Below are positions 32,945-50,804 of a DNA stretch of 64,000 nt, one piece after another; within the stretch, counting starts at the first letter, position 1, and each line of letters opens with the position of its first letter. Origin of the DNA: Alphaproteobacteria bacterium (lineage in GTDB: Bacteria > Pseudomonadota > Alphaproteobacteria > RF32 > CAG-239); the NCBI GenBank assembly GCA_017457005.1, contig JAFTII010000020.1, forward strand, positions 117-64,116. The letters run 5' to 3'. Under the pieces are notes generated by a model that ran no database searches, was not told the DNA's origin, and saw only the letters and a list, made by a program, of their open reading frames with translations. The position numbers and the translations under genes were made by a program.

Positions 32945-33421
32945 TTATACGATTATTTGCCATTTTCCGGTTTTGATAAGATAGGCAATACGTTGAGCTC
33001 GTTTGCCGGTTTGTTTGGCATAATTGCTGTTTAAACATTCCGCAGCAGCATGTTGATACATACATTGCGATAAATATCCCAGCATATTTTTGAACTTCAA
33101 AAGACCATTGATACCCAAATTAAAGGCCATATCTACCAGCGCATATTGACGTTCATCATCTAAAGCTTCAAAAAAAAGAATGCTCTGTTTGCATTCTTTA
33201 ACAATTCTTCTGATATCTCGTCTCAGCAAATAATTGGCGCCTTCTGTAGTTATACCGTGGTGCCAGTCCCCCAAAACTTTAGTTTCTTCCTCTGTAATCG
33301 GGTGGGCATCTAAATTATGCCCCACCCCTATAGTCTGTTTGCCTCTGGTACAATAATAGGGCTTCAAACGAAGCCCCTCATGAAAATGTAGTCTTTTGAC
33401 TGCGGTATTAATGTCTATCAT
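32945..33421 (-). CDS. phage lysozyme (GH24-type endolysin)
   Basis: HFHEGLRLKPYYCTRGKQTIGVGHNL matches the EG.rl..Y.d..G..TIG.GH catalytic block. Confidence 0.9.
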   Translation of the reverse strand: MIDINTAVKRLHFHEGLRLKPYYCTRGKQTIGVGHNLDAHPITEEETKVLGDWHHGITTEGANYLLRRDIRRIVKECKQSILFFEALDDERQYALVDMAFNLGINGLLKFKNMLGYLSQCMYQHAAAECLNSNYAKQTGKRAQRIAYLIKTGKWQIIV

Positions 33422-33660
33422 TTGTGTCTGTCCATAATCAGGTGATAAATATCTTTTACATCTTTGCAGGTTTCTGAACTTTGCGCTAACAAGGTATCCA
33501 GCTTGATTTCTATGGCTGATACCTTATACTCACATCCGGCAACTCGTTCTTCTAAGTTTATAACTCGCGGATTTAAGGTCAGTAAAAGTTGAATAAAACT
33601 GCATATTGAAAAGATAACTATCAATACCCAAGTAATGTTTTTGATTCTATCTATCATCAT
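33418..33660 (-). CDS. small single-TM phage protein, holin candidate
   Basis: 80 aa with TM helix WVLIVIFSICSFIQLLLTL. Its stop overlaps the endolysin start. Confidence 0.45.
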   Translation of the reverse strand: MMIDRIKNITWVLIVIFSICSFIQLLLTLNPRVINLEERVAGCEYKVSAIEIKLDTLLAQSSETCKDVKDIYHLIMDRHK

Positions 33661-33997
33661 TTTCCTCCATTACAGGTTTGGGAAATTGTGATTTAATGGC
33701 AGTTATGGTTTCTTGCCAATTATGAGTATTATTAATTTTATCCCAATAAATCATATCAAGTTGTTCGCTCAAGGGCGGATATGCTCGTTGGCGTTGCTCA
33801 ATATAACTTGGTGGATTTTGCGGAAGTACACGGTATTGACGGTATAAATATTCCGTTCCATCAACAGATGTTCGGATTGAAGGAACTTCTTCTACAATCT
33901 GATAATGATTATTAGTCGCAAACTGCCAATAAATATCATATTTTTCTGCCCCAAAAACATCTCCTAATTTGGGGGTAAATATAATTTCATCGCTCAT
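33647..33997 (-). CDS. phage hypothetical protein (116 aa)
   Basis: Translationally coupled within the tail/lysis string. Confidence 0.5.
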   Translation of the reverse strand: MSDEIIFTPKLGDVFGAEKYDIYWQFATNNHYQIVEEVPSIRTSVDGTEYLYRQYRVLPQNPPSYIEQRQRAYPPLSEQLDMIYWDKINNTHNWQETITAIKSQFPKPVMEENDDR

Positions 33998-33999
33998 GT

Positions 34000-35364
34000 T
34001 TATACTCCTTGTCCGTCAGCAACCCAATCAACACTACCGGCTCCGGCAGAAAAACCGGTTGTGGTTTTGTTGTTGCCGTTTATTAGTGTATAACCGGAAT
34101 TTGAGTATGGTTTAAGAAAAGTTACGGTTCCGCTTTGAGAATAACCTCCCTGACGCAACCGCTTACTATGATACAGCTCATACCATTGATTTCCGGATGT
34201 GCCTCGTTCAATGATATAATCTTGAATATTGGCATAATCATTATAATCAGCCGCCCTGAAAGTCATCTTAGAAGCAAAGCTATCTATCTTATCATTGCTG
34301 ACATGGGCTGATATAGGACATATACGTTTTCTGATATTCCAGTTATTATTTAAATATTCTTCTAAGGTGTTATTTGTTCTATTAAACCATATAGTATAAT
34401 TTGCCGGATTTTGCGGGCGATCTTTTTGATCAACATAAGCTGCATAATAATCGCTAAATGTTCCGGAATCCCCTATTACCGGATATACGTTTCTGGTTCC
34501 GCCCATGCTTTGTAAGGTTACATTATTAATTGTAAACTCGCAATTATTAAAACTACCGTCAGCATTTCTGCCATTTGCTATTAAACCTTTAACACCCGGC
34601 AAAGCAAAGACCATTGAGCCGATATAGCCAAATCCGTTAAATATATGTTCTACAGAAATGATAGTACCAGAAGATGAAGTTTTTATAACAGCTATCGGAA
34701 AAGAACCATTGCTCCACCTTAATACGCCTTGACTGTAAAAACTGACAATATTATCCTCTGTATTGTAGTTAACACCACTTGAAGGAAGCTCTGTATCAGA
34801 AAAAATCACATTTGTAGATACTGCCGTAAAACCTCCGTCTCCGGTAATAAACATAACTAATGTTGCTTCGGTCGTAATCGGACTGGTATAAATTCTGTCA
34901 GTGCTAACTATATATTCGGCAAATTTTAAATTATCTTCGGCATCTCTTCCGGAAGGAATATATAGCTTACTACCTGACTTCAAAATTATAGAGCCGTTAT
35001 TAAATTCTAACCTGATGTCTTGCGGTATTTCGGTTATGCAATTGGTAATATGAGTTTGATTAATCTTATCATTTGCATAGTGTTTGGATAATTCCGCATA
35101 ATCAGCCGATTGCTTGGCAGCCTCCGAACTCTGAATGGCTAAAGGGTTCATAACATCTTTAACCGTTTGTAAAATTACAGGTTTGGCAATGTTGTCGGTA
35201 TAATTCATTATATCAGGTTTACTGATATTGTTTACATAGTCATTGATTTCCTGCTTGCCTGATCGTATATGCTTTATTGCAATATCTAAATCCAATTGAA
35301 CTTCATCTTGCCAATATAGCTCTATTGTTGAACTGTCATCTATGTTTGTTGATATGATTTCCAT
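34000..35364 (-). CDS. putative tail fibre / receptor-binding protein (454 aa)
   Basis: Position downstream of the collar-domain fibre gene. Ser/Thr/Asn/Gly-rich, beta-rich composition. Confidence 0.5.
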   Translation of the reverse strand: MEIISTNIDDSSTIELYWQDEVQLDLDIAIKHIRSGKQEINDYVNNISKPDIMNYTDNIAKPVILQTVKDVMNPLAIQSSEAAKQSADYAELSKHYANDKINQTHITNCITEIPQDIRLEFNNGSIILKSGSKLYIPSGRDAEDNLKFAEYIVSTDRIYTSPITTEATLVMFITGDGGFTAVSTNVIFSDTELPSSGVNYNTEDNIVSFYSQGVLRWSNGSFPIAVIKTSSSGTIISVEHIFNGFGYIGSMVFALPGVKGLIANGRNADGSFNNCEFTINNVTLQSMGGTRNVYPVIGDSGTFSDYYAAYVDQKDRPQNPANYTIWFNRTNNTLEEYLNNNWNIRKRICPISAHVSNDKIDSFASKMTFRAADYNDYANIQDYIIERGTSGNQWYELYHSKRLRQGGYSQSGTVTFLKPYSNSGYTLINGNNKTTTGFSAGAGSVDWVADGQGV

Positions 35365-35368
35365 CTTA

Positions 35369-35725
35369 TTACCTCGTTACCTGCTCTGTTATTCTGAATA
35401 CGCCTATCTTATTTATATTTGTAGGAAAGATTGTGTTTATGGCGCCATCAGGCAAAACCAATTCAATATCTACTTTATAATCGCCTACCGGAATGTTGGT
35501 ATCTTGAGGAGTTAAAATAAAAACCATTTTACCGGTGTCAGTTTCTGCATTGAGTGCTGTTTTATCAATAAGCAAGTTATCTTCATAATCTCTGACCTGC
35601 ATACGCAGCGATGAGCCTTGCATATCAAAATCATGATGTGATTTTTTTATTTGAACAATTATATTAAAACTATCCCCTTGTCTGACTTCAATAAGATTTG
35701 AATGTGCAACTATTCTACCGCTCAT
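35369..35725 (-). CDS. phage structural protein, Ig-like (118 aa)
   Basis: VRQGDSFNIIV...GDYKVDIELV pattern, reminiscent of BppU-N/Ig-like phage domains. Weak call. Confidence 0.45.
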   Translation of the reverse strand: MSGRIVAHSNLIEVRQGDSFNIIVQIKKSHHDFDMQGSSLRMQVRDYEDNLLIDKTALNAETDTGKMVFILTPQDTNIPVGDYKVDIELVLPDGAINTIFPTNINKIGVFRITEQVTR

Positions 35726-35727
35726 AA

Positions 35728-36504
35728 TTAGCTCTCCAATTTGATTTTAATAAAATAATTAACTGCTTGGTTAATAGGAGTAACATGCGTACTTGCTCCA
35801 TATATGGGATTGGATAATGAGGCCTTAAAACCGGTTCCGTTGCAACTCTGATTGTGGCTATCGGAATTTTTACCCATAGTGGTTGTTGTCAGATCATAAA
35901 ATGCTCCGGTAACAGTTGAATTGTTTTCATATCTCATCGGAAGGAATGTACCTTTAATATCCGGTAATCCTTCTGCTTGAGTTGAATAAATATCAGAAGC
36001 CGAATTTCCGCCCAACCCTCTTAAAAATTTTCCGCGATAATCAGGAAGATTAAAAGTTGTTGTTCCGTCTCCGGCACCAAATTTGGTTCCTATCAAAGCA
36101 AATAATTCCGAATATGTTGTTCGGCTTACGGCTTGCCCGTTGCATAAGAACCAATTGCCATGGTTGGATGTTTGTACGGAGGCTTTAATATCTCCTAACT
36201 TTTCCGATGAATTGATGATATTCTTAATTGTTGATTGAAGAGAAGATACGGCATCATTTAATTGTTGCAAATTAGTGGCTTCCGTTTGTGCTGTTGCTTT
36301 AGCCAAATTTTTTAATTTAAATCCGGCAATGTTTATATCCCCTTTCATTGCAACTCTTCCATCACGTAAAAAAGTCTGACTCAAGCCATCGGCAAAGTTG
36401 TCGTCTTCTTCATCATGGTGATCCGTAACAATTTCTATATCATTTATTCTATCATCTTCCCAATTATGAATACGGGTAAAATTTCCACCACTATCAAATG
36501 GCAT
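35728..36504 (-). CDS. tail fibre protein with phage tail-collar domain
   Basis: WFLCNGQAVSRTTYSELFALIGTKFGAGDGTTTFNLPDYRGKFLRG. Start set at MPFDSGG, which has a perfect AGGAGA RBS. Confidence 0.8.
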   Translation of the reverse strand: MPFDSGGNFTRIHNWEDDRINDIEIVTDHHDEEDDNFADGLSQTFLRDGRVAMKGDINIAGFKLKNLAKATAQTEATNLQQLNDAVSSLQSTIKNIINSSEKLGDIKASVQTSNHGNWFLCNGQAVSRTTYSELFALIGTKFGAGDGTTTFNLPDYRGKFLRGLGGNSASDIYSTQAEGLPDIKGTFLPMRYENNSTVTGAFYDLTTTTMGKNSDSHNQSCNGTGFKASLSNPIYGASTHVTPINQAVNYFIKIKLES

Positions 36505-36527
36505 TTTATTTCTCCTATAAAAAATTT

Positions 36528-36755
36528 TTAATGACAAATATCCAATTCTTGCCGTAGTTTATCAATTCTCCCGATCCATTCCCAAGTATAAGGATAATCT
36601 TGATAATTAAGACGTTGTAATTCGTTGGCTACATTACTTCCGGCTATGGGATAGATCGGACAATAATTATAATTTTTCTGCGTACATGAGCTTAAGCAAA
36701 GCATCACGAGAAGCATTAGGACGAGAATGAATTTGCGATTTTTGTTGTGCAACAT
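36528..36755 (-). CDS. small lipoprotein (o-spanin-like or exclusion lipoprotein)
   Basis: Lipobox LCLSSC after a hydrophobic signal. Its start lies inside the upstream ORF in another frame. Confidence 0.45.
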   Translation of the reverse strand: MLHNKNRKFILVLMLLVMLCLSSCTQKNYNYCPIYPIAGSNVANELQRLNYQDYPYTWEWIGRIDKLRQELDICH

Positions 36756-36864
36756 GTTTTACTACCTCTGTTTGCTTGGCTATAATTTGAGTTTGAGAAT
36801 GCGAACGACCAAGCAAGTAACACAGAAGTAATATGAGTACCAAACCTACAATACGGATAATCAT
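36667..36864 (-). CDS. small N-terminal-TM protein (i-spanin-like)
   Basis: 65 aa with TM helix IVGLVLILLLCYLL, then a polar periplasmic-type tail. Overlaps the lipoprotein gene by 89 nt. Confidence 0.4.
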   Translation of the reverse strand: MIIRIVGLVLILLLCYLLGRSHSQTQIIAKQTEVVKHVAQQKSQIHSRPNASRDALLKLMYAEKL

Positions 36865-36998
36865 TATGGCGCTCCCAATAATAACAAAAAAGCCCTTGCC
36901 ACATACTCCGCAGCTTCGGGCCTGATTAGCGACACAACAGAAAGTACTGCTAAGGCGGTAATTATAACATAAAAACGATATTTGTTTGCCTTTTTCAT
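36864..36998 (-). CDS. 44-aa small membrane protein (not in the ORF track)
   Basis: Translated by hand: MKKANKYRFYVIITALAVLSVVSLIRPEAAEYVARAFLLLLGAP. Its TAA stop and the start codon of the next ORF share nt 36864 (ATAATG). Begins just after a terminator. Confidence 0.3.
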   Translation of the reverse strand: MKKANKYRFYVIITALAVLSVVSLIRPEAAEYVARAFLLLLGAP

Positions 36999-37007
36999 TA
37001 TTTTCTC

Positions 37008-37037
37008 AAAAAAAAAGCCGAGATTATGTCTCGGCTT
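37008..37037 (-). terminator. intrinsic terminator inside the phage cluster
   Basis: Stem agccgaga/tctcggct with a 9-nt T-run on the minus strand. Confidence 0.65.
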
Positions 37038-37056
37038 TGCGGTTAATGTAATGACA

Positions 37057-37440
37057 TTATAATCCGATCAGCATTTTACTGAAAACGGATACTAAAAATT
37101 TAACAATCAACATCCAAACAGTACCACCAAAAATAACACCCCATATCATTCCCCATCCGGCCGGAGTATTATTACGGCGTTGTTGAATATAGTCATATAA
37201 AAACCATATTCCTTGCTCCATAAGATATACGATAAATAATATCAATAATCCGAGAACCGTTTCATCGCCTTTAACAAACTGCGGGACTGCAATTGCCACG
37301 CGTAGAAGTGCAGTTAAAGTATTAGATACTTTCCAAGAGTTTTCTTTTTTAAATAATCGTTTCAGCAGATAAAGAATAATAACACGGATGATTCCGGTCA
37401 GCGCTAATGTTGCTATCGACATTAAGATTACAAATGTCAT
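37057..37440 (-). CDS. phage-encoded 4-TM membrane protein
   Basis: Start set at the ATG with an aaggaa RBS. Four hydrophobic helices. Confidence 0.55.
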   Translation of the reverse strand: MTFVILMSIATLALTGIIRVIILYLLKRLFKKENSWKVSNTLTALLRVAIAVPQFVKGDETVLGLLILFIVYLMEQGIWFLYDYIQQRRNNTPAGWGMIWGVIFGGTVWMLIVKFLVSVFSKMLIGL

Positions 37441-37511
37441 GGCATTTCCTTTCAAAAAGATGTTTATGATTGATACTAACCGCCATTTTGTTAATTGTCA
37501 AATTTATATAT

Positions 37512-38381
37512 CTATTTACAAGCTAATCCATAATTAACTTTCAGATAACCGCTGGAATCAATATAAACGGCATCCGGATTTATATAAATAACTTCTTGGG
37601 CCAATAAACCTATACGAGGTGTATTATCTCCTACGTAATTATATAAATATACCGGTAATCCGTTATATAATCTGCCGACTTCAGTGATATTTTGTTTTAA
37701 GTTTTCATCTGAAAACATACTGACAATACTTCCCAGCGCATTCCATCCGGCTTTTGTTTGAGCCTGATTGTTATATTGGCGATTATCTGATATACGTTTA
37801 TCTGACTGCGAGGCTATATCATATTTATCCATAGCAACATCATAACCGCTTTTACTATTTTGCAATAAACTCAAAATCTCATTTACGGGCAATATTTGTG
37901 CTGAATTTTGAAAATTGCCGGCAGCAATTTGATTGTTGAGGCTGTTGGTATAAGTATTTTGACCGGCAGAAATACTATCATAAGCTGCTTGTTCGTATGC
38001 ACCTGCCTGTTGCTGATCAAGGCTGTTCATAGCATTCTGATAAGCCTCACTCCCCACACTCAAACCCTGATTTTGCAACTTGGTTTCTAATTGACGACGC
38101 ATAGCTGCAAATTGCGGATTTATTTTGTTAACAGCATTTCGGTAAGTTGCGTTTTCTGCTCTTTGAGCATCTTCTTGTGAACCGGACACCGAATATATAT
38201 ACCCCGGACGATTGTTTAGCCGGGAGCTGATTTGATTACCTAAATTTGCCATATTTTTATATGTATTATCTGCTACGCCGGTATCATAACTATTGAGATA
38301 ATTCAATATCTCATTTTCAGCTCCATAGCGAGATGTATTTGCTCCGCCGGCTCCCAATACTTTTCCTATACTTTTTGCCAT
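37512..38381 (-). CDS. phage protein with C-terminal intramolecular-chaperone (peptidase S74) domain
   Basis: FSDENLKQNITEVG....GLPVYLYNY.....RIGLLAQEV....PDAV. Q/N-rich N-terminal part. Perfect AAGGAG RBS at the chosen start. Confidence 0.7.
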   Translation of the reverse strand: MAKSIGKVLGAGGANTSRYGAENEILNYLNSYDTGVADNTYKNMANLGNQISSRLNNRPGYIYSVSGSQEDAQRAENATYRNAVNKINPQFAAMRRQLETKLQNQGLSVGSEAYQNAMNSLDQQQAGAYEQAAYDSISAGQNTYTNSLNNQIAAGNFQNSAQILPVNEILSLLQNSKSGYDVAMDKYDIASQSDKRISDNRQYNNQAQTKAGWNALGSIVSMFSDENLKQNITEVGRLYNGLPVYLYNYVGDNTPRIGLLAQEVIYINPDAVYIDSSGYLKVNYGLACK

Positions 38382-38382
38382 A

Positions 38383-38826
38383 TTAATCTCCTTGATAAAA
38401 TTCAAATTGTTTTTTCTGTACGCCCATAATAATCTTATCGTCTCCGTTATCGCCATAATGAGAAAGAATCCCCTCTACAGTAAAGCCTAATTTTTGAGCC
38501 AATTTTATACATTTAAAATTGTTGCAATCAGTCATTATGGTTATCCTTTTACATGCAAAATAATCATAAGCGACCGAAAACATAAATTTTAGTATTCTTT
38601 TACTACACCAGTGCTTGTCTATAGTATAAAGTGTCCACCAGACATCTCTTCCTTGACGAATATTGTGGTAAATCAATCCTCCGATTAGTCGGTTTTGATA
38701 CACAAACCCGATTGTATAATGTTTATCCAACCATTCGGTTCCGATGTTCAGCCCCGAACAAATCCAATCGGTTATTTTCTCTTTGTCATCACTAATAACA
38801 CTACATAATGCTGCATCCTTGTTCAT
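38383..38826 (-). CDS. GNAT-family N-acetyltransferase
   Basis: Acetyl-CoA-binding-like block and C-terminal KLAQKLGFTVEGILSHY. About 147 aa. Confidence 0.65.
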   Translation of the reverse strand: MNKDAALCSVISDDKEKITDWICSGLNIGTEWLDKHYTIGFVYQNRLIGGLIYHNIRQGRDVWWTLYTIDKHWCSKRILKFMFSVAYDYFACKRITIMTDCNNFKCIKLAQKLGFTVEGILSHYGDNGDDKIIMGVQKKQFEFYQGD

Positions 38827-40351
38827 AGCGAACTCCCGTATCAAACCATTCTATTAAATTACCGCGGGTTTTGGTTTTGAAAACCACACTCGCTTTAAAA
38901 CCGGTGGCAGAATTTGCAATCCATTGACTGCGTATTTTTCCTTTTAGGGTTGCCCATTTGCTTCCGACAGGGTTCTTTAAGCAACTCCAATAAGTTGAGT
39001 TCCATTTATTCAAATCACTGTGCCCTATATTTTCCATATAAGGACACTTTTGTGATGAGAAATCCATATTGGTATATACTATTAACGCATATTGTGCAGA
39101 TGATTTTGTGCGCGGATTGATAAGCTGAATTCGTTTTAAATTCGGAGTACCAAAGTCCGAATAGGCTTGTTCAACCGTTCCGCAAATATGTACTCCATTA
39201 TCAGAATAGCCTTCATCAAACAAAAATACAGCATTGTCCGAACCAAAAAAGATCCGGTTACCAAATGTTCCCCAACAAAATGACCTGATATCGGTAAAAC
39301 GACACCAAGCACCGCTATTTACATTTACAACATGTTGCTCAAATTGTTGTGCTACCGGAACATTGAATATTGCATATCCGCCACGACTATAAATAATACT
39401 TTGCCAACCTGTTTTATCCTTTGATTGTTGCGTTCTTTCCAAAACCAATCCTCTAATTTTATCTGAGAAAGAAACTTGTGAAGAATTGGCTTTATCTAAT
39501 GACAATGCCTTGGACATCGGAATATAGCCGTCTTCAGATATGATGACAATGTCTCCCTGGTATTGCATAGCACAGCGATAACCTATCGGGCGGCTCATTT
39601 GAAATACCCCGCGCAAGCTCCAATCTGAAGCATCACCGGGATCATTTCCCCCATATACGGCAATCTCTCCTTCTGAGGTTATAAATACGGTTAAATCATC
39701 AACTCCTTGTCCGGCATCTTGTGTCCAAGAAGCAATTGATAACAGCTCCCCGCCTTTGCGAAAAATTGAAGACAGATCAAATTTAACCAATGTTCCCCGT
39801 ACTTCTCCGGCTCCTTGCGAATACCAAGCGTTTAAGCTCCCTTTTTCTACAAAAAACAAACGTTGTTTGCTTACGGTTACATTTATAAGCTTAAATGGCT
39901 GGAGATTAATGCCTTCAAACATGGCTTCTTGCCAATTGTCGCCATCTTCCGAACTATAAAATGTTTGCGGGGCATCATAACCGTTTACTAATATCAGATA
40001 GTCCTTAAATTGTACATATTGCCAATAATCATGGCTAAAGTCTGTTGCAATTTCTTTTACGTCTTCTTTATTAGTGATATCCCATATCTTACCATTACCA
40101 AAAGCAAAGAACTTATTATTTCCCGGTTTGCAATATTCAACCAAGGTACTTATTCGGCAACCTAAATTTACATAAGGAACATATCCTTTACGTAATACCA
40201 CCTTATTGGCAATCGGTAAATAATTGTCCATGACTATAGCATCAGTTATTGCCATGGTATCTAAACTATCTCTGACATTCAATCCTCCAATCGGAGCCGG
40301 CAAGATAAAATTAGCTGAAGTATTATTTCGGTTAATCTGCTTTGGTGACAT
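38801..40351 (-). CDS. large phage structural protein (tail/nozzle-like, beta-propeller-like)
   Basis: Start at MSPKQINRNN, which has a perfect AAGGAG RBS. Repetitive beta-rich sequence. Positioned between the capsid-proximal genes and the fibres. Confidence 0.55.
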   Translation of the reverse strand: MSPKQINRNNTSANFILPAPIGGLNVRDSLDTMAITDAIVMDNYLPIANKVVLRKGYVPYVNLGCRISTLVEYCKPGNNKFFAFGNGKIWDITNKEDVKEIATDFSHDYWQYVQFKDYLILVNGYDAPQTFYSSEDGDNWQEAMFEGINLQPFKLINVTVSKQRLFFVEKGSLNAWYSQGAGEVRGTLVKFDLSSIFRKGGELLSIASWTQDAGQGVDDLTVFITSEGEIAVYGGNDPGDASDWSLRGVFQMSRPIGYRCAMQYQGDIVIISEDGYIPMSKALSLDKANSSQVSFSDKIRGLVLERTQQSKDKTGWQSIIYSRGGYAIFNVPVAQQFEQHVVNVNSGAWCRFTDIRSFCWGTFGNRIFFGSDNAVFLFDEGYSDNGVHICGTVEQAYSDFGTPNLKRIQLINPRTKSSAQYALIVYTNMDFSSQKCPYMENIGHSDLNKWNSTYWSCLKNPVGSKWATLKGKIRSQWIANSATGFKASVVFKTKTRGNLIEWFDTGVRYEQGCSIM

Positions 40352-43585: not shown

Positions 43586-43611
43586 AAAAAAATCCCGAGA
43601 ATTTCTCGGGA
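43586..43611 (-). terminator. intrinsic terminator closing the moron cassette
   Basis: Stem tcccgaga/tctcggga with a 7-nt T-run on the minus strand. Confidence 0.65.
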
Positions 43612-43632
43612 GGTTGTGATTAAGTTCAACTA

Positions 43633-44193
43633 TCATTGTTTAGTTTTATGATTTTCTTGCCACATAATTTTACGAAGTATTTGCAGTTCTTGATATGAAT
43701 ATTCATACAAACAATTTTGTTTATCATATTCTTGGTTATATTGTTGACACAGTCTCAATACGTCATGCTTCCAATCTTGAAAATTATATTTCCAATCCGA
43801 ATCTTTTTCTAATTTTTGGTAATAACCTGATATCTCATTTTGAAACCGTTTAACCATATCTGCCAAACAAATTGCATTATTACCGCAATGATCTTTAATA
43901 TCATAATATTCATCAGTATCATAGACATATTCATCTTCTTGTATTATCGGAATTATGCAATACATATTGAGGCAAAATAAAGTAATACTCCATAGAATTA
44001 TACTCAGAAATTTATTAATGTAACAACATAATACTGAGGTTAGTGTTAGCAAAGATAGCATAATAATACTATTTTTAGAAATACTTTCAGGAAAAATTGT
44101 TAACATATAAAAAAACAATATACAAAAAGCTACAAATGCTACAAACCACAATATAAACAAACTTTTTTGATGTGTGTTATTGAGAAATTTCAT
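43633..44193 (-). CDS. 3-TM protein with Cys-containing soluble C-terminal domain (moron B)
   Basis: Start at the ATG with a GGAGA RBS. Three helices, then HCGNNAICLADMV...CQQYNQEYDKQNC. Confidence 0.55.
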   Translation of the reverse strand: MKFLNNTHQKSLFILWFVAFVAFCILFFYMLTIFPESISKNSIIMLSLLTLTSVLCCYINKFLSIILWSITLFCLNMYCIIPIIQEDEYVYDTDEYYDIKDHCGNNAICLADMVKRFQNEISGYYQKLEKDSDWKYNFQDWKHDVLRLCQQYNQEYDKQNCLYEYSYQELQILRKIMWQENHKTKQ

Positions 44194-44734
44194 TATTCTT
44201 CTCCTCAAATAACAACCATGTGTAATAACATTGTTTTTTACGGATATTCTTTAATTTATGATTTTGCCTTACAATTCCATAGTTCCTTTTATCACAGTAT
44301 TCATATCCTATTTTTCCATATAGTGATTTAGTAGTGTTTAATTTACTTATAGCATGATCAAAACAAAGTTCTTTATCTTCGTTATTATAAAGGCACTGCA
44401 ATAAATCAGGTTCATATTTAGATAATTTACTTTGTAAAAACCCAGCAGGATGATATGATACAGGCAACAATGTCTGTATTACCAATAAAATTAAAAAAAT
44501 AGGAATTATTATCATCATTTGTTTGCGCGGTATATATAATTCCAGCAAATATATGATAATAAAACTTGAAAATAAAGCTATTATAAACAAGGGCAATTTA
44601 TCATTAATCACAGCTAAATCATATCTCATTTGCAAAAAGTCAGACAATAATAACAATGCAAATGAAAATGCTATTGTGATTGACCACGCTATCAATAACA
44701 AAATATTTTTTAAGAGGCCAAATATTATTTTCAT
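44177..44734 (-). CDS. multi-TM protein with Cys-containing soluble C-terminal domain (moron A)
   Basis: Three to four helices, then CLYNNEDKELCFDH...YCDK...KKQC. Confidence 0.55.
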   Translation of the reverse strand: MKIIFGLLKNILLLIAWSITIAFSFALLLLSDFLQMRYDLAVINDKLPLFIIALFSSFIIIYLLELYIPRKQMMIIIPIFLILLVIQTLLPVSYHPAGFLQSKLSKYEPDLLQCLYNNEDKELCFDHAISKLNTTKSLYGKIGYEYCDKRNYGIVRQNHKLKNIRKKQCYYTWLLFEEKNNEISQ

Positions 44735-44781
44735 ATTAAATCCTTTTTAACAATTATATTTTTTTTATTTAATTTTTCAAT

Positions 44782-45111
44782 CTATTTAATATAACGTGAG
44801 TAAAATTGCGAAATCATGTCTTCACAGTCTTCATCAGGATTTTTAAAACCGACATATATTCCTCTCGCATCTGCCTTTAAGTCCTGAATACCATCTTGTA
44901 TAATATCCGAATAATGTTTATAGTTATCATTATTGATCGTATTATCTTGGTTAAGCTTATCAGCTGTATCTAAAGCCTGATTATAAGTATTACGAACCTG
45001 TGTAACAACTGATGACTTAACGGCATTATCATAAACTTGACGCAACCATTCTCGTCTCTTTTGTTGTTCTTCTAAATCTTCTCCCCACATATTAGTATAT
45101 CTGCTACTCAT
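44782..45111 (-). CDS. phage hypothetical protein (109 aa)
   Basis: Intact ORF in the portal-scaffold gap. Confidence 0.5.
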   Translation of the reverse strand: MSSRYTNMWGEDLEEQQKRREWLRQVYDNAVKSSVVTQVRNTYNQALDTADKLNQDNTINNDNYKHYSDIIQDGIQDLKADARGIYVGFKNPDEDCEDMISQFYSRYIK

Positions 45112-45128
45112 CTGTTTTGTCCTTTGTA

Positions 45129-45335
45129 TTATATAAATTCAACCATTATTTGTTTGTATGCTTCATCATTACCGGATTTGCTTTTGTTCTTATCACTTAA
45201 AAGCGCTAAAACCTTAGCCTTACCTAAAGAAGCAGAAATTGCCGCCGTAGGAGATTCATTACGTACGGCAATGGTACGAGCTTCTTCCAACTCATCTAAG
45301 ATATCTTCATAACTAAGCTTCTTCTTTGAAACCAT
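45129..45335 (-). CDS. phage hypothetical protein (68 aa)
   Basis: Start moved to the ATG (MVSKKKL), which overlaps the upstream TAA stop. Confidence 0.45.
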   Translation of the reverse strand: MVSKKKLSYEDILDELEEARTIAVRNESPTAAISASLGKAKVLALLSDKNKSKSGNDEAYKQIMVEFI

Positions 45336-45493
45336 TAGCAAAACCCTTTGACTAATCCGGTAGATATATTGGTGTTTATATCGTTCTTTCTAGGCGGAGT
45401 TGGTTGCTTATCGTGAATTACAACCGGATTTCGGTTATATTTTTTACGCTCATCTGCGAGTTGCTGAATTTTTAATCCGGCCTGAAACTTCAT
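45335..45493 (-). CDS. 52-aa ORF (not in the ORF track)
   Basis: Translated by hand: MKFQAGLKIQQLADERKKYNRNPVVIHDKQPTPPRKNDINTNISTGLVKGFC. Starts 1 nt after the portal stop. Confidence 0.3.
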   Translation of the reverse strand: MKFQAGLKIQQLADERKKYNRNPVVIHDKQPTPPRKNDINTNISTGLVKGFC

Positions 45494-47254
45494 TTATTGT
45501 GCCGTAAGAGCATTTTTGGCTTCTTCATTATGTGCCTTGATTTCCAGTTCTTTGGCTTTAAGAGCATTCTTTTCTTTTTCAATCATTATTTTTTCTTGTT
45601 CTAATTCAAGTTGATGATTTGGCTGTTCCGGTTCTTTTTTATTCAAATCTGCTTCAACAGCGTTAAACACCTTTTCAATCACGCTTTCAAAAGGACGTGC
45701 CTTGGGCAACGAGGTGCAAAAACTTTCTATCATGCTACGATATAACGGTAATAATAACGGTTGTTGACTTACGGTCGGCAGAGCAGATATAATCAATTCG
45801 TTTAGAGCCTTGATACCGGAAAGAGTTTTCTCTGCCTCTGCTTCGGCATTAAAGACATTATCATTTTCTATTTCTAAAATCATGCCGCGCATTTTTTCGT
45901 CTTTAAGCAACAAAACTGCCTGCCGTGCTTCCGGTAAAATTTGTTGCTCCGGAGGCAAAAATCCAAGCAATGTTTCGGCAGAAAATTGTTCACAAATTAT
46001 CTCAGCTTTAATGGTAAACAAGTCTTTTATAAAACGTTGCATATCATTTTGCCGATCTTGATTACGTAAAGTTCCAAAATTTGTTTTTTTGGTTACGGCA
46101 GTGGCCGTATCTTCGGAATTTGAACTGCCTCGCATAATATCAGAAACGCCGGTTATCTCATATATTTGATTAATTATATCCTGTCTTCTTTGTGCTAATT
46201 GCTCTAAAGCAGTTATATATTGCTCTATCGGAATAAAGTCTAATATGCCTTTCAACCCGCCACAATCCTTCAGGCGTTGAAAATCCTTAGCAGCAACCAG
46301 TGTAACATCTTTATTCAATATACTGCCTAATTCAGGAAAAGAATTATCATAAGCACCGCTAACTTTTAAGGCCTGCATTGTCAAACGCATACGAGAATGA
46401 ATGCCGTTCAGCTCGCTTAATAACTCTTTTATCAGGCAATAATCCGGAACCGGAATTATACTATCATTGGTAAGTGTTGCAAAAATGGGTTTTGGGCAAG
46501 GAAAAAATCCCTGTGTTTTTAACGGATTATTTGCAACACGAATAAAATCATCAGTTTTTTCTTTAGCTAACCAATAAACTTTTTTACTTTCCTTATCCCA
46601 AATTTCATAAATACAAATATCTTTACAGTCTTTATCATCTTCTTTATCTGCCAAATTAAGACAGGCAGTTTCTCCAAAAGTTGCTATAGCCTGCTCTTTG
46701 CTCATATAAATTTTGCGCGCAACCCAACTGACATCTTCCCATATTCCGACTTCATCACAATCGGCTAAAAAATTTTCGGGATTAACATATTCGGAGATTA
46801 CTTTCTCAGAGCTTTTAATTTCTATTTTTCGCTTTGAATCTTGTGCAGATGAAACAAATTCAAAATTCGGATGATAACGCTCCCAAACAATACCGCAACC
46901 GCTAATCAAAAAATCATTACGTGCATATTTGATAATGCTGTCAAAATCAAATTGTTGCAGATTCCAAATCAGTGATTTGCTCAGAATATCACAAGCTAAT
47001 TTTTCAATTTTGTTAGCGCTCTTACCACTACGTTCAAGATATGGTTTAGGCTGTTTGAAATATAAAAACGGTTTTAAGGTCTCTATTGTTGACCAAAAAA
47101 TATTATAGTGTCCGACATTATATCCAAATCCTCGGTTATCTTTATAAAATTCACGAGTTTCTTTGATTAAATTATAATAGCTCTCATATTTTTTCTCTGC
47201 CGCCGAAATTTTTTTCAGCCATTTTTCAACCTGCTGTTGTTTATTCATCTTCAA
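45494..47254 (-). CDS. portal protein
   Basis: 586 aa, downstream of terL, with a charged C-terminal tail. The call rests mainly on position and size. Confidence 0.7.
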   Translation of the reverse strand: MKMNKQQQVEKWLKKISAAEKKYESYYNLIKETREFYKDNRGFGYNVGHYNIFWSTIETLKPFLYFKQPKPYLERSGKSANKIEKLACDILSKSLIWNLQQFDFDSIIKYARNDFLISGCGIVWERYHPNFEFVSSAQDSKRKIEIKSSEKVISEYVNPENFLADCDEVGIWEDVSWVARKIYMSKEQAIATFGETACLNLADKEDDKDCKDICIYEIWDKESKKVYWLAKEKTDDFIRVANNPLKTQGFFPCPKPIFATLTNDSIIPVPDYCLIKELLSELNGIHSRMRLTMQALKVSGAYDNSFPELGSILNKDVTLVAAKDFQRLKDCGGLKGILDFIPIEQYITALEQLAQRRQDIINQIYEITGVSDIMRGSSNSEDTATAVTKKTNFGTLRNQDRQNDMQRFIKDLFTIKAEIICEQFSAETLLGFLPPEQQILPEARQAVLLLKDEKMRGMILEIENDNVFNAEAEAEKTLSGIKALNELIISALPTVSQQPLLLPLYRSMIESFCTSLPKARPFESVIEKVFNAVEADLNKKEPEQPNHQLELEQEKIMIEKEKNALKAKELEIKAHNEEAKNALTAQ

Positions 47255-47498
47255 ACACTCCTAATATTGAATTTTGCCTTACTACTACAACATCCGGATC
47301 ATAAGTCGGTAATTCATCAAAAATATGAAACAATACTTTGTCTCCGATTTCTATTCCCTTGACTTCCGGACCGATACTTTCAACAATTCCGATTGTCCGC
47401 TCCGGTTGATAATCTTCCGTAAAAAAAATACCGCCGGCGGTTGCGGACGGTTTACTTTCTAATCTGATAAAAACTCTATCGGTTATTGCTTTTACCAT
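47241..47498 (-). CDS. GroES/Cpn10-like co-chaperonin
   Basis: AITDRVFIRLESKPSATAGGIF, IGIVESIGPE, IEIGDKVLF and NSILGVFE are colinear with E. coli GroES PLHDRVIVKR..KSAGGIV, GEVLAVGNG, VKVGDIVIF and SDILAIVE. Confidence 0.7.
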   Translation of the reverse strand: MVKAITDRVFIRLESKPSATAGGIFFTEDYQPERTIGIVESIGPEVKGIEIGDKVLFHIFDELPTYDPDVVVVRQNSILGVFEDE

Positions 47499-48964
47499 TC
47501 AATACTCCTTTTCGGTAAATTAAATAAATCATTATAAGTTAAATGTCCGTTGCCATAAACAGACGGCTTGCCATTATCATAAACAGGCTCGGCAAAAGTC
47601 AGAGCTAAGGCATCGCCTTTATCCGGTGAGCGACCTAATCGTTTTTTTAATTCATCTTTTTCTTCCAAACAAAGTCGTCCTTTGCGGTCATATTTTTTAT
47701 TAACTGATGTTAAATCATCAAATAAATCTTCATCAGCCGGAATTTGAACCGGAGGTTTACTTTCAAGCCATTGTCTGATTTCATCCCACATTTCGGCACG
47801 ACGGTTAAAATAACGTTCATCATTCAGGGCTTTTTCACCAAAATATATTCCCCTGATAATCTCTGAAAACCCTCTATCCTTCAAAATATCAAATACTCCG
47901 GCACCCTGACCTCCGATATCCATGAATATACGATAAGGTTGCATTTGGCGAATGAAATTAGTTGCCAAATTAGCAACCGCCACATTGTCCAATTTTTGAT
48001 AAGTATCAAATTTGATACACCACCTTCCTTTACGAAAACAAAATGATGTTTTATCATCTCCAAAACGGGCAATATCAAGACCTATAACTAACGGAGAAGT
48101 ACTATTATCAATCTTGGAAATCGCTGCCTCTCTGACTAATGCGGAAGATATTAATTTGTAATTACCTTGACGAATTGGTTCTCCAAGCCAAATATGCTCA
48201 TAATCATCAGGATTATTTTGTTTACATTGTTCTGCTTGCAGTTTTATCTCTTCCGGACAAAACGGATTATCATAATAATTAACTTTACGAACTAAGGTTC
48301 TTTTATCGGGCTTATTGCCTAACAATACCCATAGCGGATCATTTTCTTCTTCCCGATTCATTGATATCCAAATTTCAGAACCGTTTTTACGTATTGTCGG
48401 ACTTAAAATATTCCATGACTTTTTAGTAATGGTATGTGCTTCTTCTATCCAAGCAATATCAACGCCTTCCAGTGATTTAATATTATTAATATCCTGATCG
48501 CGCAATCCACGAAAAATAATCTTGGTTCCGGTAATTTTATTTTCAATTCTGCTTTCATAAATCTTATAATCATTCAACCCCCAGGCAGATATGCGATCAC
48601 AAAGTAATTTATAAACAGAATCCTTAATGGAATCTTGAATTTCTCGCAAACAGGCAATAAACAACTTTTTTTGTCTGCCCAACAATAATATGCTGTCCGC
48701 AAAAGCATAAGACTTGCCGCCACCACGTCCGCCATAATAAAATTTAATACGCCAGTTTTCATTCAAAAGCGGCTTGAAAATTTCAGCAATTTCAATTTTC
48801 AGCTCCGGCGATTTATTTTTGCGACAATTTGCTCTTATGTTTTTATTATTCCCAATATCAGTTTTGGTTTTCCGCTTATCGGTTTTTGGATCATCCAAAA
48901 CCGATTTTTTGCCCTCAGTTACCGATACCGCACGTTTTGTTATTGTGCGCCCACCCTTCTCCAT
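47492..48964 (-). CDS. terL: terminase large subunit (PBSX/Terminase_3-like) with a basic N-terminal extension
   Basis: Walker A YYGGRGGGKSYA, Walker B-like IAWIEEA, C-terminal nuclease region. The first ~60 aa are Lys/Arg-rich. Confidence 0.9.
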   Translation of the reverse strand: MEKGGRTITKRAVSVTEGKKSVLDDPKTDKRKTKTDIGNNKNIRANCRKNKSPELKIEIAEIFKPLLNENWRIKFYYGGRGGGKSYAFADSILLLGRQKKLFIACLREIQDSIKDSVYKLLCDRISAWGLNDYKIYESRIENKITGTKIIFRGLRDQDINNIKSLEGVDIAWIEEAHTITKKSWNILSPTIRKNGSEIWISMNREEENDPLWVLLGNKPDKRTLVRKVNYYDNPFCPEEIKLQAEQCKQNNPDDYEHIWLGEPIRQGNYKLISSALVREAAISKIDNSTSPLVIGLDIARFGDDKTSFCFRKGRWCIKFDTYQKLDNVAVANLATNFIRQMQPYRIFMDIGGQGAGVFDILKDRGFSEIIRGIYFGEKALNDERYFNRRAEMWDEIRQWLESKPPVQIPADEDLFDDLTSVNKKYDRKGRLCLEEKDELKKRLGRSPDKGDALALTFAEPVYDNGKPSVYGNGHLTYNDLFNLPKRSIEW

Positions 48965-48977: not shown

Positions 48978-49010
48978 AAAAAAAATTCTGAAGATTGATG
49001 TCTTCAGAAT
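48978..49010 (-). terminator. intrinsic terminator immediately upstream of terL
   Basis: Perfect 10-bp stem attctgaaga/tcttcagaat with a 7-nt T-run on the minus strand that ends 13 nt before the terL ATG. Confidence 0.65.
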
Positions 49011-49083
49011 TTTATATACGTTTTCCATAATACGTTTTTTGTATCACTATTGGTCCCGCTTGTCAATACCTGTGGATAAGTTT

Positions 49084-49515
49084 TTATTTTCTGTATAAAT
49101 ACAAAGAGTTAATAAGATTTTTCATTCCCCATCCATGACGATGTCTATATTTTTGCTCAACAAATTTGCAAGTTTCACCAAAATACAAAACATCTATCGC
49201 CGCCAAATGAGATATACCGCTCTCCTCGCAATTATCGGCCCAATCCAAATAATCTCTTCGGCAAGCAGAAAGGTATAATAATTTATCCTCTTCCGAAGCA
49301 AAAACATTTTGATTTATACTTACAGAAACTTTTTCATTCCACGATGAAACCCGCATTGGACTTACCTGACATAAGAAAGCATATCCACGACATATACGAA
49401 CTGCCGTCCACTCAAATCCGAGTTCTCGTACTTTTTTCCATACTTTAGCATCTTGTAATGAAATACGATGTTTTTGCGATAACAATCTTTGGTTTCGTTT
49501 TAATTTCAGGGTCAT
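49084..49515 (-). CDS. phage hypothetical protein (143 aa), candidate late regulator
   Basis: First gene of the leftward operon, divergent from the repressor. Contains several Cys. No recognisable motif. Confidence 0.5.
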   Translation of the reverse strand: MTLKLKRNQRLLSQKHRISLQDAKVWKKVRELGFEWTAVRICRGYAFLCQVSPMRVSSWNEKVSVSINQNVFASEEDKLLYLSACRRDYLDWADNCEESGISHLAAIDVLYFGETCKFVEQKYRHRHGWGMKNLINSLYLYRK

Positions 49516-49565
49516 TATTATATCCTTTAAACTAAAAATTAATAAGTCAGGCACTATTTATATAT

Positions 49566-49613
49566 CTACGATATTTGTATTTTAAAAGTCAAGACTAATC
49601 TACGTTAGTTGTA
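49566..49613. promoter_or_regulatory. two operator-like direct repeats CTACGNTANTTGTA
   Basis: ctacgatatttgta (49566-49579) and ctacgttagttgta (49600-49613) are 12/14 identical and lie in the divergent repressor/late-operon intergenic region. Confidence 0.3.
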
Positions 49614-49680
49614 TCTTTACAAAATTAAGTTTATAGGATACCATTTTCGTATATTAAAAGTTTTTATAAGGAGATTATAT

Positions 49681-50424
49681 ATGGACAATCGCTGGAATTG
49701 GCTAAAAAACAGATTGAACGAATTAGGAAGTAATCCGTCTCGTTTTGCAAAAGAACTGGATTGGCCGGCAAGTCGTGTATATGAATTGTTTTCAGGCAAA
49801 ACAAAGGCAATCCCCTTGGACAGATTGGCCAAAGCTTCTGCAATATTAGGTGTCAGCTTAGACAATATGATAAATTTTAATTCCGGACTTTCTGATGATA
49901 TATGTTTCGGTACCATTTATAGCAGCACCACCAAGACAGATAATTCGGGAATCGTACCGGAGCTTGATTTATATGAAATGTATCCGCCCATGATGAATAA
50001 TGATTGGGATGGAGAAACAGATTTTCTTAATGACATCTCATATACCTATAGTGCCAATTATTTACCGACAAGAAAAATTAAGGATAATTGGAAAATACCT
50101 GATGAATATTTGGAAGAAATAAATATACAGCAAAAAAATGTTTATATAATTGAAGCGATGGGAGATAGTATGACCCCCACCGTTTCTGCCGGAGATAAAG
50201 TTATTATTGACACTTCTGCCAAAGGTAAGTTTCCCTCTCCTGACGGAATATTTGCAATATGGGACGGCTTGGGAATCGCAATTAAAAGAATTGAATTAAT
50301 ACCAAACAGCGAACCACCGGCACTAAAAATAATCTCTGACAACCCTCGCCACAGCTCGTATGAAAGAAAAGTTGAAGATTGCCGAATTGTCGGAAGAATC
50401 GTAAGCGTTATCAAACGACTTTAG
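49681..50424 (+). CDS. CI/LexA-like phage repressor (HTH plus S24 peptidase)
   Basis: N-terminal XRE-type HTH (SRFAKELDWPASRVYELFSGK). C-terminal GDSMTPTVSAGDKVIID and IAIKRIE (Ser-Lys dyad). AAGGAG RBS. Confidence 0.85.
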   Translation: MDNRWNWLKNRLNELGSNPSRFAKELDWPASRVYELFSGKTKAIPLDRLAKASAILGVSLDNMINFNSGLSDDICFGTIYSSTTKTDNSGIVPELDLYEMYPPMMNNDWDGETDFLNDISYTYSANYLPTRKIKDNWKIPDEYLEEINIQQKNVYIIEAMGDSMTPTVSAGDKVIIDTSAKGKFPSPDGIFAIWDGLGIAIKRIELIPNSEPPALKIISDNPRHSSYERKVEDCRIVGRIVSVIKRL

Positions 50425-50510
50425 AAGATATACACATTGCGTATATTTTAATTTGACTATAAAATTTTATTCTATATACAATATTCGTACTAATAATACG
50501 GATATTGAAA

Positions 50511-50804
50511 ATGTGTTTATCAAAAAAACAACTACAAACAAAAGCATCTGATCTGTTTACTTATTTTGAATTTAATAAGTTCAGAAACGAGTTGTCATAC
50601 AGCAAAAGAACGAATCTTTTGTTGGAATTTTGTGACTATATTGAACATTTATCCGATTGGGAAATTGCCGATATTTTGAATAGCGACAACAACTCAGATG
50701 TGCGTAATTTCAGAAAAATCATAAATAACGGTGCGGATATTTGGCTTGGTGATCTGATAAAAACAATAAGCTATAAGGAAAATATATTATGCAAGAAAAA
50801 ATAA
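50511..50804 (+). CDS. hypothetical protein (97 aa)
   Basis: ORF downstream of the repressor on the same strand. No motif. Confidence 0.4.
   Translation: MCLSKKQLQTKASDLFTYFEFNKFRNELSYSKRTNLLLEFCDYIEHLSDWEIADILNSDNNSDVRNFRKIINNGADIWLGDLIKTISYKENILCKKK

Follow-up and report, generated by a model that had tools for sequence, protein, structure and literature searches.

Is a phage-derived gene cluster in the chromosome of a gut bacterium a prophage in decay, or does it encode a particle system that its host has kept? The question is raised by positions 32945-50804 of a 64-kb stretch of DNA (~35% GC; contig JAFTII010000020.1 of assembly GCA_017457005.1, hereafter the window) from an uncultured gut alphaproteobacterium represented by a metagenome-assembled genome (MAG). 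The original prediction had recognised a head-tail-lysis cluster under repressor control in this region and had left two options, a domesticated system resembling a gene transfer agent (GTA) or a recently decayed prophage. We find the former much better supported, by a compact architecture that recurs in dozens of species and by purifying selection, and reject the latter. Judged from sequence, the cluster derives from a temperate short-tailed phage with an Mx8/P22-like head module, has been domesticated and fixed in the chromosome, most likely yields complete phage-like particles on induction and would act in a GTA-like manner (probability about 0.68). The evidence excludes an ordinary prophage as well as a recent remnant, and the cluster appears to be a strong candidate for a new GTA-like element.

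The proteins of the cluster were scanned with Pfam and PHROG, and the rest of the 64 kb was read from precomputed Pfam labels. The scans confirmed the late gene string on the minus strand from terL to the endolysin gene (32945-48964; Table 1), and the PHP-domain and autotransporter genes that had been named as its borders were found on either side. No match to tape-measure, tube or sheath families was obtained in these scans of the cluster, and the P22/Mx8/T7-style module supports the earlier call of a short tail. Integrase, excisionase, recombinase and replication genes were detected neither in the cluster scans nor among the Pfam labels, so that the absence of integration, excision and replication genes holds for the entire window, where the remaining labelled genes have housekeeping functions (AlaRS, thymidylate synthase, SpoT, RNase J, NADH dehydrogenase subunits, Mur ligase, mechanosensitive channel, HisRS). 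Comparison of the two borders (29.5-33 kb against 50.4-55.7 kb) revealed no attachment-site (att) repeats beyond chance, the longest common word being 14 nt and AT-rich, which bears out the reported lack of flanking direct repeats; no partial duplicate of the nearby tRNA-Lys or tRNA-Thr was seen. The marks of a functional temperate prophage, an integrase with att sites and contiguous replication or early genes, are therefore missing. Nor does the cluster resemble a phage-inducible chromosomal island or the capsid-forming variety of these islands, since it has no integrase or replication gene and encodes its own adaptor, tail and fibre proteins.

The reduced gene set is not peculiar to this genome. 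In a survey of one genome per GTDB species, relatives of the major capsid protein (MCP) were found in 181 genomes, and the best 80 were used for comparison, with one locus per distinct assembly. Capsid identity in these best 80 of 181 is 70-95%; they are gut or rumen alphaproteobacterial MAGs, save for a few contigs that are probably mis-binned, and none of them is a Bartonella. Three cluster-bearing species-representative contigs carry Bacteroidaceae or Eubacteriales labels in their record titles (L039, L080 and L085; L-numbers such as L001 or L012 are labels of comparison loci), and judging by the gene content of the contigs these are probably binning errors in the MAGs concerned. For 79 loci with a length of 15 kb or more, all open reading frames (ORFs) of 80 aa or longer were clustered, complemented by tblastn; the core that emerged consists of TerL, Cpn10, portal, scaffold, capsid, tail proteins, collar fibre and a 118-aa protein. 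Most of its 13-14 genes are present in ~69-78 of the 79 loci. Architecture was scored in 58 species-representative loci of sufficient length: 41 are compact and colinear, 15 are rearranged and two are phage-like. The compact form extends over 13.9-19.8 kb from the repressor to the lysis genes (median 16.4 kb) at the loci whose two ends were identifiable.

Every core gene is under purifying selection, with ratios of nonsynonymous to synonymous substitution (dN/dS) of 0.01-0.3, similar to those of flanking host genes. Because dS is saturated in most species pairs, these ratios are reliable for the closest pairs only, among which L077/L085 gave 0.03-0.15 and L032/L096 gave 0.03-0.31. Pairwise protein identities of the element (capsid, portal, TerL, tail) co-vary with those of the flanks (Spearman 0.73-0.98, with p-values that are only indicative since the pairs are not independent), and the loci vary in GC content between 0.31 and 0.52, with the MCP at 70% identity or more throughout. 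These findings bear on the proposal that the cluster is what remains of a prophage which decayed recently, without its early region, no longer functional and due to be deleted. Such a remnant would account for the premature stop in the portal gene of the window assembly, the variable content of accessory genes (morons) among conspecific contigs and the absence of integration and replication genes. However, dozens of species, in which MCP identity falls as low as 70%, have the same reduced architecture, dN/dS is 0.01-0.3 for all core genes, the operators are conserved, and the portal stop is private to one assembly, with five conspecific contigs intact. We consider a decayed remnant very improbable.

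We then asked where the clusters reside. In conspecific contigs, which come from several samples, the position of the cluster is constant and its morons vary; within subclades the flanking genes are shared, namely an ABC transporter gene at 16 loci, an M23 peptidase gene at nine and a Mur ligase gene at seven. L012 and L095 have the right flank of the window (mechanosensitive channel, Mur ligase). Relative to L012, L020 and L095, the window has an insertion of an autotransporter gene and tRNA-Thr (51011-55673) that separates the Mur ligase gene from the element, and the M23 peptidase gene (1647-3065), found next to the lysis end elsewhere, is ~30 kb away from the lysozyme; the window neighbourhood has thus been rearranged in its own lineage. 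In seven further Pfam-labelled contexts the compact cluster directly abuts host genes (L19/TrmD, Mur ligase, M23 peptidase, ExbD, ABC transporter, nitroreductase), and none of these contexts, nor that of the window, contains a recombinase. Across 64 loci, 116 representatives of the non-core flank protein clusters matched 131 Pfam families, mostly housekeeping; no family occurs in more than two of the 116, and Phage_integrase is not among the 25 commonest, although a single integrase is possible. The check that had been suggested, for a fixed locus, vertical inheritance and low dN/dS in related species, thus came out in favour of domestication.

Further evidence comes from one clade of nine species in which the gene order is split into two blocks, the first with the repressor, portal, fibres and lysis genes and the second with TerL and the genes from scaffold through capsid to the S74 protein. 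The split cluster still lies beside the ABC transporter gene and is under purifying selection. Such rearrangement in place is hard to square with a packaged mobile genome, whereas it is allowed for a gene set fixed in the host. A small serine recombinase (Resolvase + HTH_7) is encoded next to rearranged or atypical clusters (L084 16633-17313, L042 ~4.2-5 kb, L110 570-1199) and might be responsible for the module inversions and rearrangements of one clade.

The phage ancestry of the module is apparent from its relatives. The nearest capsids from cultured phages are those of Bradyrhizobium phage ppBjS10J-1 (46% identity), Mx8 (44%) and Stenotrophomonas phage BUCT555 (43%). Closer relatives were found in IMG/VR, with 57-74% capsid identity and the same structural gene order, on contigs of which the longest reach 33-35 kb; the genomes of the cultured phages measure 44.6-53.5 kb. 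Thus, Mx8/P22-like phages resemble the window cluster in their capsid (44-46% for Mx8 and ppBjS10J-1), and the IMG/VR relatives resemble it in gene order as well. Upstream of TerL, the phage-like relatives additionally carry N6/N4 and C5 DNA methylases, a possible helicase loader and DUF2303, and in the interval from the S74 gene to the fibre genes two large genes (~300-580 aa and 500-840 aa) that match no Pfam or PHROG family. By position only, the latter may be counterparts of the internal or ejection proteins of T7/P22-type phages. No homologue of the two large virion genes, the methylases, DUF2303 or the possible helicase loader was found in the window, and in contrast to its phage-like relatives the window cluster has no means of excision.

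The existence of these relatives leads to the alternative that the cluster is a still-mobile minimal temperate phage or satellite of ~16-18 kb, for which host functions, its small ORFs or a co-resident complete relative acting as helper would supply replication, excision and ejection. Complete relatives with the same structural module do exist on the IMG/VR contigs, compact and phage-like forms are interleaved in a neighbour-joining tree, several small ORFs have no annotation, three operators under a CI-type switch are what one typically sees in live temperate phages, and some subclades have kept a full TerS. A relative is also carried by a GenBank record from human faeces, MT835830.1 (L001; 16,998 bp; 'UNVERIFIED: Bacteriophage sp.'). 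This record does not, however, describe a free 17-kb phage: it is not circular, has no terminal overlap and is 99.5% identical over its full length to positions 2035-19032 of L056, a 119-kb contig of the MAG 'Azospirillum sp. 51_20', and hence represents a chromosomal element. At least one database "phage" record is therefore really a chromosomal element. Mobility is further contradicted by the lack of a recombinase in all eight annotated compact contexts and of any recurrent one in the flanks, by the missing att repeats, by insertion sites that are kept within subclades while divergence tracks the flank genes, and by the gene order rearranged in place in one clade. We judge a mobile minimal phage or satellite to be improbable.

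A small terminase had not been recognised in the original prediction, which was not quite right: the short ORF that follows the portal gene encodes a truncated TerS homologue. Its full length aligns at 39-40% identity with residues ~60-125 of the full-length TerS of three loci (L045, L047, L097), and the motif ELE-AR..A...A...A..GKAK is invariant between the remnant and its full-length Terminase_2-type relatives. The homology rests on this family alignment together with BLAST clustering, the pairwise BLASTP match alone being weak (E 0.002). Pfam Terminase_2 covers only the N-terminal 78-85 residues of full-length TerS, the very part that is absent from the window ORF, and gave no match with the 70-aa window protein. 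Instead of a Terminase_2 protein that has a helix-turn-helix at its N-terminus and an oligomerisation core, the window thus encodes a homologue of the C-terminal half, which probably retains the oligomerisation part. In the window clade the 68-70-aa ORF is the only TerS relative. The TerS of RcGTA also lacks its N-terminal DNA-binding domain, and this loss has been proposed to explain random packaging (PMC6854486).

The LexA/CI-type repressor gene that had been predicted to diverge from the string was confirmed on the plus strand by its HTH_3 and S24 domains; according to the gene caller it probably starts at 49681 (247 aa), and it has the serine (GDSM) and lysine (IKRI) of the catalytic dyad. 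Operator-like sites surround it on both sides and precede TerL. Over both strands of the window, TAC-N7-GTAT occurs 15 times (6.5 +/- 2.7 expected), with six of ~11 distinct sites falling within 1.5 kb, while the perfect form ATAC-N7-GTAT occurs four times in 64 kb (0.95 expected), three of them in the control regions of the cluster. Both number and position are conserved: the three-site arrangement is present in at least 12 other species, a site pair 36 bp apart is found at the same position in L010, L012, L017, L019, L020, L028, L030 and L095, and a more distant clade uses the variant TTAC-N7-GTAT. Downstream of the repressor, the 97-99-aa ORF matches no Pfam or PHROG family; by tblastn, homologues with 31-62% identity adjoin the S24 gene of ~25 loci.

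The first gene under the switch (49084-49554) encodes a protein that we propose to be an early or late regulator. Its C-terminal motif is conserved in 14 species, and a word-indexed search recovered only three homologues. Pfam and PHROG gave no match, and the AlphaFold model (pLDDT 70) yielded only myoglobin-level noise when compared with the PDB by Foldseek. A role as small terminase was rejected, as hhalign detected no relation to either TerS family in addition to the negative Pfam and PHROG scans; hhalign also found it unrelated to the conserved 165-aa early protein of other subclades. A resemblance of its C-terminus to a sigma region-4 helix-turn-helix was an impression without tool support. 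The hairpin that lies just before TerL on the minus strand has a 13-bp stem followed by a T-run (49013-48982), and the succession of TTGACA hexamer, operator and hairpin recalls the lambdoid Q / PR' / tR' control. It also recalls the activation-plus-antitermination control described for the Caulobacter GTA (PMC11150451).

The fourth perfect operator of the 64 kb (15514-15528) led us outside the cluster. It lies in the promoter of a gene 17.5 kb from the structural genes whose product fuses an N-terminal MuF domain to a C-terminal VgrG3-like peptidoglycan hydrolase, and because this locus looks co-regulated, the system extends beyond 32945-50804, the limits within which the original prediction had confined it. 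An orthologue with 61% identity in L167 has an identical promoter-operator layout among different neighbours (RuvC, EamA). In three contexts (window, L166, L167) the MuF gene is followed by a convergent ORF of ~150 aa that encodes a signal peptide, the 157-aa window protein matching its L167 counterpart with an E-value of 8e-9, and the two genes together look like an effector-immunity pair. N-terminal MuF homologues also occur within clusters, directly after TerL, in L079 and L115, and other members of the ORF family with this N-terminus have serum amyloid A (SAA)-like domains. The metagenome scan with the MuF protein confirmed no relative; those described here came from the protein search. 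The PF04233 and PF21277 domains and the conserved convergent ORF correspond to the features of MuF polymorphic toxins, for which a location outside a prophage is atypical (PMC5576092). The window gene is accordingly like these toxins in its N-terminal MuF domain, variable C-terminal effector and small adjacent partner gene, and unlike them in lying outside any prophage, connected to the cluster by a shared operator only. MuF-toxin fusions of temperate phages have been proposed to ride in the capsid (PMC5576092), and we propose that the MuF-hydrolase fusion is likewise a putative virion cargo. Dispersed loci outside the main cluster are a known pattern of GTAs (PMC12946183; PMC9662315), which a detached cargo gene that has kept its operator fits.

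The same locus supports the main rival among domesticated systems, a killer particle of the PBSX or headed-tailocin kind that would deliver MuF-fused effectors into neighbours lacking the periplasmic immunity protein, with packaged DNA being incidental. In its favour, the pairing of the hydrolase gene with a convergent immunity-like gene is kept in three genomic contexts, the MuF promoter carries the operator of the cluster, some clusters hold polymorphic ORFs with the N-terminus of the MuF hydrolase, from a family in which other members have SAA domains, MuF-toxin fusions have been suggested to travel in phage heads (PMC5576092), and the two large, possibly ejection-related genes are absent. 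On the other hand, TerL, the TerS remnant and the portal are under strong purifying selection, which argues that DNA packaging still matters; the hydrolase could be a mere virion-associated enzyme that pierces the cell wall, with a partner for self-protection, and MuF toxins have nowhere been proven to be packaged effectors. A killer particle appears unlikely, yet it is a stronger rival than a mobile minimal phage or satellite, with the decaying remnant weakest of all.

Based on these findings, we propose the following working model for a domesticated GTA-like element. The repressor would bind the ATAC-N7-GTAT operators, whose presence and conservation are observed, and would hold down expression of the early gene (49084-49554) as well as of the late operon and the distal MuF gene. 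Upon loss of the repressor, possibly via RecA-stimulated self-cleavage, the early protein would be made and would permit transcription past the hairpin before TerL. Heads, portal, adaptor, nozzle and fibres would then assemble, with the GroES-like chaperonin helping, and TerL would fill the heads together with the TerS remnant that is devoid of its N-terminal DNA-recognition region. As they would be filled from an unexcised, unreplicated chromosome, mostly host DNA would be packaged. The membrane proteins and the GH24 lysozyme would lyse the cell, and the released particles would act as a gene transfer agent, with the MuF hydrolase perhaps in the head as a cargo that opens the cell wall.

Several observations weigh against this model. 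First, the capsid is 57-74% identical to that of relatives on contigs of up to 33-35 kb; if it is as large as theirs, it could hold the whole 18-kb cluster, and the GTA feature of a head smaller than the particle gene set may then fail for the main cluster. Second, DNA delivery might fail, because the missing large genes may encode ejection proteins. Third, the portal gene of the window has a TAA at 45494-45496 where five conspecific contigs (L002, L003, L004, L007, L009) have GAA. This stop is private to the window assembly, removes the last 52 residues and could be a real strain mutation or an assembly error. Fourth, other compact subclades encode a full-length TerS of the GP3_package or Terminase_2 type beside TerL, implying that loss of packaging specificity is not general. 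Fifth, the phage-like forms are basal to or interspersed with the compact ones in the rough neighbour-joining tree, which does not support a single clean origin; reduction may have occurred more than once, or exchange with phages may be continuing. The large clade that contains the window is uniformly compact in this tree. Sixth, L058 and L065 share 67-86% identity over the left flank and most of the element and 95-100% from the holin/lysin genes into the ABC transporter flank; the breakpoint, near 16.5 kb, implies a recent recombination tract that ends inside the element. Finally, the repressor linker of the window clade has no canonical Ala/Cys-Gly cleavage site, while more distant members have Cys-Gly in the linker. 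SOS wiring, which had been taken as given, is for this reason plausible but not established.

How does the element compare with known systems? GTAs are functionally defined by packaging of random host DNA with no preference for their own genes, by the lack of self-replication or self-transmission, by vertical inheritance, by a head capacity below the full particle gene set and by transfer of markers to recipients (PMC9662315 / PMC11841831). For the present element, the Pfam and PHROG scans, the flanks and the att search revealed no module for self-replication or transmission, and the loci are vertically inherited under purifying selection, with the caveats of recombination tracts, interleaved phage-like forms and a comparison made without a host species tree. 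Random packaging of host DNA is hinted at indirectly only, by the TerS cut down to its C-terminal half and by the missing excision and replication genes. Like RcGTA (Rhodogtaviriformidae), the element is a set of head, tail and lysis genes of phage origin that an alphaproteobacterial host has retained and that includes no integrase or replication gene, has co-evolved with this host under purifying selection, has a TerS without the N-terminal DNA-binding region (PMC6854486) and includes at least one extra locus. In contrast to RcGTA, the window module lacks the tape-measure, tube and head-tail genes of that system and has a capsid that matches those of Mx8-like podophages. It does not belong to the Rhodogtaviriformidae, whose cluster is of the siphovirus type, as it is an adaptor/nozzle/fibre-type module with a capsid of PHROG 9953. 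Moreover, control is by a CI-type repressor and operators instead of a CtrA/GafA network, the lysis genes lie inside the cluster, and the head may be large enough for the cluster.

PBSX of Bacillus subtilis is a chromosomally fixed, repressor-controlled and inducible structural-plus-lysis cluster that is conserved in the species, packages host DNA and may serve killing rather than transfer. The window cluster resembles it in this fixed, repressor-controlled organisation and differs from it in that PBSX has a long contractile tail, a Gram-positive host and no sequence relation. PBSX has been mentioned as GTA-like in the work on FpGTA of Faecalibacterium, for which a paper of 2026 claims two firsts, a podovirus-like GTA-like element and one from the human gut (PMC12946183). 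A podovirus-type GTA, predicted to be new when the cluster was first noticed, is therefore no longer unprecedented. FpGTA is similar in residing in a gut commensal, in its compact TerS/TerL-portal-capsid-lysis operon, in its probably podovirus-like morphology and in being nearly ubiquitous in its host genus. This likeness is one of description, and FpGTA differs in its Gram-positive Firmicute host, in its two operons (operon I, 10.5 kb) and in its packaging of ~8.4-8.9 kb fragments, which has been shown experimentally, whereas the window element is known from sequence alone (PMC12946183). Our literature searches retrieved no description of the window element and no podovirus-like GTA for Alphaproteobacteria; in this class it would add a third type to the RcGTA-like and BaGTA-like families (PMC9662315).

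Table 1. Features of the cluster, its control regions, its borders and the distal MuF locus (window coordinates; aa, amino acids).
Feature	Position	Strand	Basis or remark
Signal-peptide protein, 157 aa	13983-14456	+	Convergent with MuF gene; immunity-like partner
MuF-hydrolase gene	14463-15476	-	N-terminal MuF PF04233; C-terminal VgrG3-like peptidoglycan-hydrolase domain PF21277
Perfect operator palindrome ATACGAAAAACGTAT	15514-15528		Inside the spacer of the TTGACT...TATATT promoter of the MuF gene
PHP-domain gene, left flank	31645-32511		Pfam
GH24 endolysin (lysozyme)	32945-33421	-	Pfam Phage_lysozyme 2e-15
Small single-pass membrane protein, 80 aa	33418-33660	-	Lysis gene
Fibre module	33647-36537	-	Collar-domain fibre, 118-aa protein, 454-aa distal fibre, 116-aa protein
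Fibre-region proteins (two small proteins, 454-aa fibre)	33647-35725	-	Many tail-fibre PHROGs
Tail-collar fibre	35728-36537 (as called to 36504)	-	Pfam Collar 2e-20
Multi-pass membrane protein and small lipoprotein	36528-37455	-	Lipobox LSSC; read from translation
Virion protein with C-terminal S74 chaperone domain	37512-38456 (as called to 38381)	-	Pfam; PHROG 4470/6121 for the S74 and GNAT pair
GNAT acetyltransferase	38383-38844 (as called to 38826)	-	Pfam; PHROG 4470/6121 for the S74 and GNAT pair
Head-completion and tail block	38801-41607	-	Includes 184-aa protein; PHROG 20268, 6013, 5107
Large tail protein phrog_5107, 516-578 aa	38801-40537 (516-aa form 38801-40351)	-	PHROG 5107
Adaptor-like tail protein	40332-41051	-	PHROG 6013 (tail)
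Major capsid protein	41674-42648	-	PHROG 9953 6e-106
Scaffold-position gene	42676-43488 (221 aa as called, to 43341)	-	Position; conserved in 75/79 loci
Variable region	43334-45111	-	109-aa ORF of a polymorphic family, two morons, conserved 75-aa ORF before the scaffold gene
Two membrane-protein morons	43633-44734	-	
Truncated small terminase (TerS) homologue, 68-70 aa	45129-45341	-	After portal
Portal	45335-47254, ending at 45494 in the window assembly	-	PHROG 12082 3e-112
Cpn10 / GroES-like co-chaperonin	47241-47498	-	Pfam Cpn10 2e-9; between TerL and portal
Large terminase TerL	47492-48964	-	Pfam Terminase_3 1e-37; PHROG 3717
Late control region	48982-49063	-	TTGACA promoter-like hexamer, operator, hairpin just before TerL start; read from sequence
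One operator-like site ATACAAAAAACGTAT	49030-49044		Upstream of TerL
First gene under the switch, 156-aa ORF	49084-49554 (143 aa as called, end ~49515)	-	All-helical
Three operator-like sites (C/A)TAC-N7-GTAT	49566-49652		Divergent intergenic region; spacing 34-38 bp
CI-type repressor	49609-50424	+	N-terminal HTH_3, C-terminal Peptidase_S24; Pfam S24 1e-11, HTH_3 1e-3
Two operator-like sites	50430-50489		ATACACATTGCGTAT at 50430-50444, TAC-N7-GTAT at 50476-50489; between repressor stop and small ORF
Small ORF, 97-99 aa	50505-50804	+	Downstream of repressor; two operator-like sites upstream
Autotransporter, right flank	51011-55270		Pfam

Individual features of the cluster vary in their conservation. 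The S74 gene is present in 77 of the 79 loci, the 184-aa, adaptor-like and 516-aa tail proteins are each present in 69-77, and Cpn10, counted where its ORF has 80 aa or more, in 56. Divergence is greatest in the distal fibre (tblastn among species loci). At the lysis position, other subclades encode a Hydrolase_2 enzyme instead of GH24, and the multi-pass membrane protein and lipoprotein, which are patchily conserved, have possible lysis or exclusion functions, as read from their sequence. Relatives of the adaptor-like protein show a weak match to SU10_adaptor; the scaffold-position protein matched no family in Pfam or PHROG, and searches of PDB sequences with the capsid, the 578-aa tail protein and the 744-aa protein of a relative returned no match. 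In at least 57 of the 79 loci, the GNAT gene is kept inside the structural operon, with the large tail protein on one side and the S74 protein on the other.

The variable region differs in its morons even among conspecific contigs. Longer relatives of its 109-aa ORF carry SAA domains, and many clusters have one or more SAA (PF00277) ORFs (family of n=38; examples are L004 11042-11551, L005 11764-12471, L096 6631-7017 and L049 18093-18656). Some members of this SAA-carrying family and the window's MuF-hydrolase protein have an N-terminal segment in common. At the distal locus, a permuted (two-piece) tmRNA gene (15591-16025; tag ANDNNVAPVAMAA) is the immediate neighbour of the MuF promoter that bears the operator, and SspB flanks this tmRNA gene on the opposite side.

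Few GTA families have been recognised, and new ones are hard to find because they resemble broken prophages. The element described here displays marks of domestication that can be computed: a compact architecture in dozens of species, divergence linked to that of the flanks, rearrangement in place and a remote gene bearing the operator, together with the loss of early genes and of two large virion genes and the truncation of TerS. As a tentative extension, to which we give less than even odds, a third alphaproteobacterial GTA type may exist across the gut and rumen group. It would be short-tailed and Mx8/P22-like, be switched by a conserved CI-type circuit, package chromosomal DNA by means of a TerS devoid of its DNA-binding domain, and draw from a separate, co-regulated locus a MuF hydrolase carried in the head and its immunity protein, thereby joining gene transfer to kin-discriminating attack or entry. 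Should the particles be active, they would offer the rare chance to compare a domesticated element with complete phage relatives that still survive, and the element would provide a widespread route of DNA exchange or killing among abundant uncultured bacteria of the gut and rumen.

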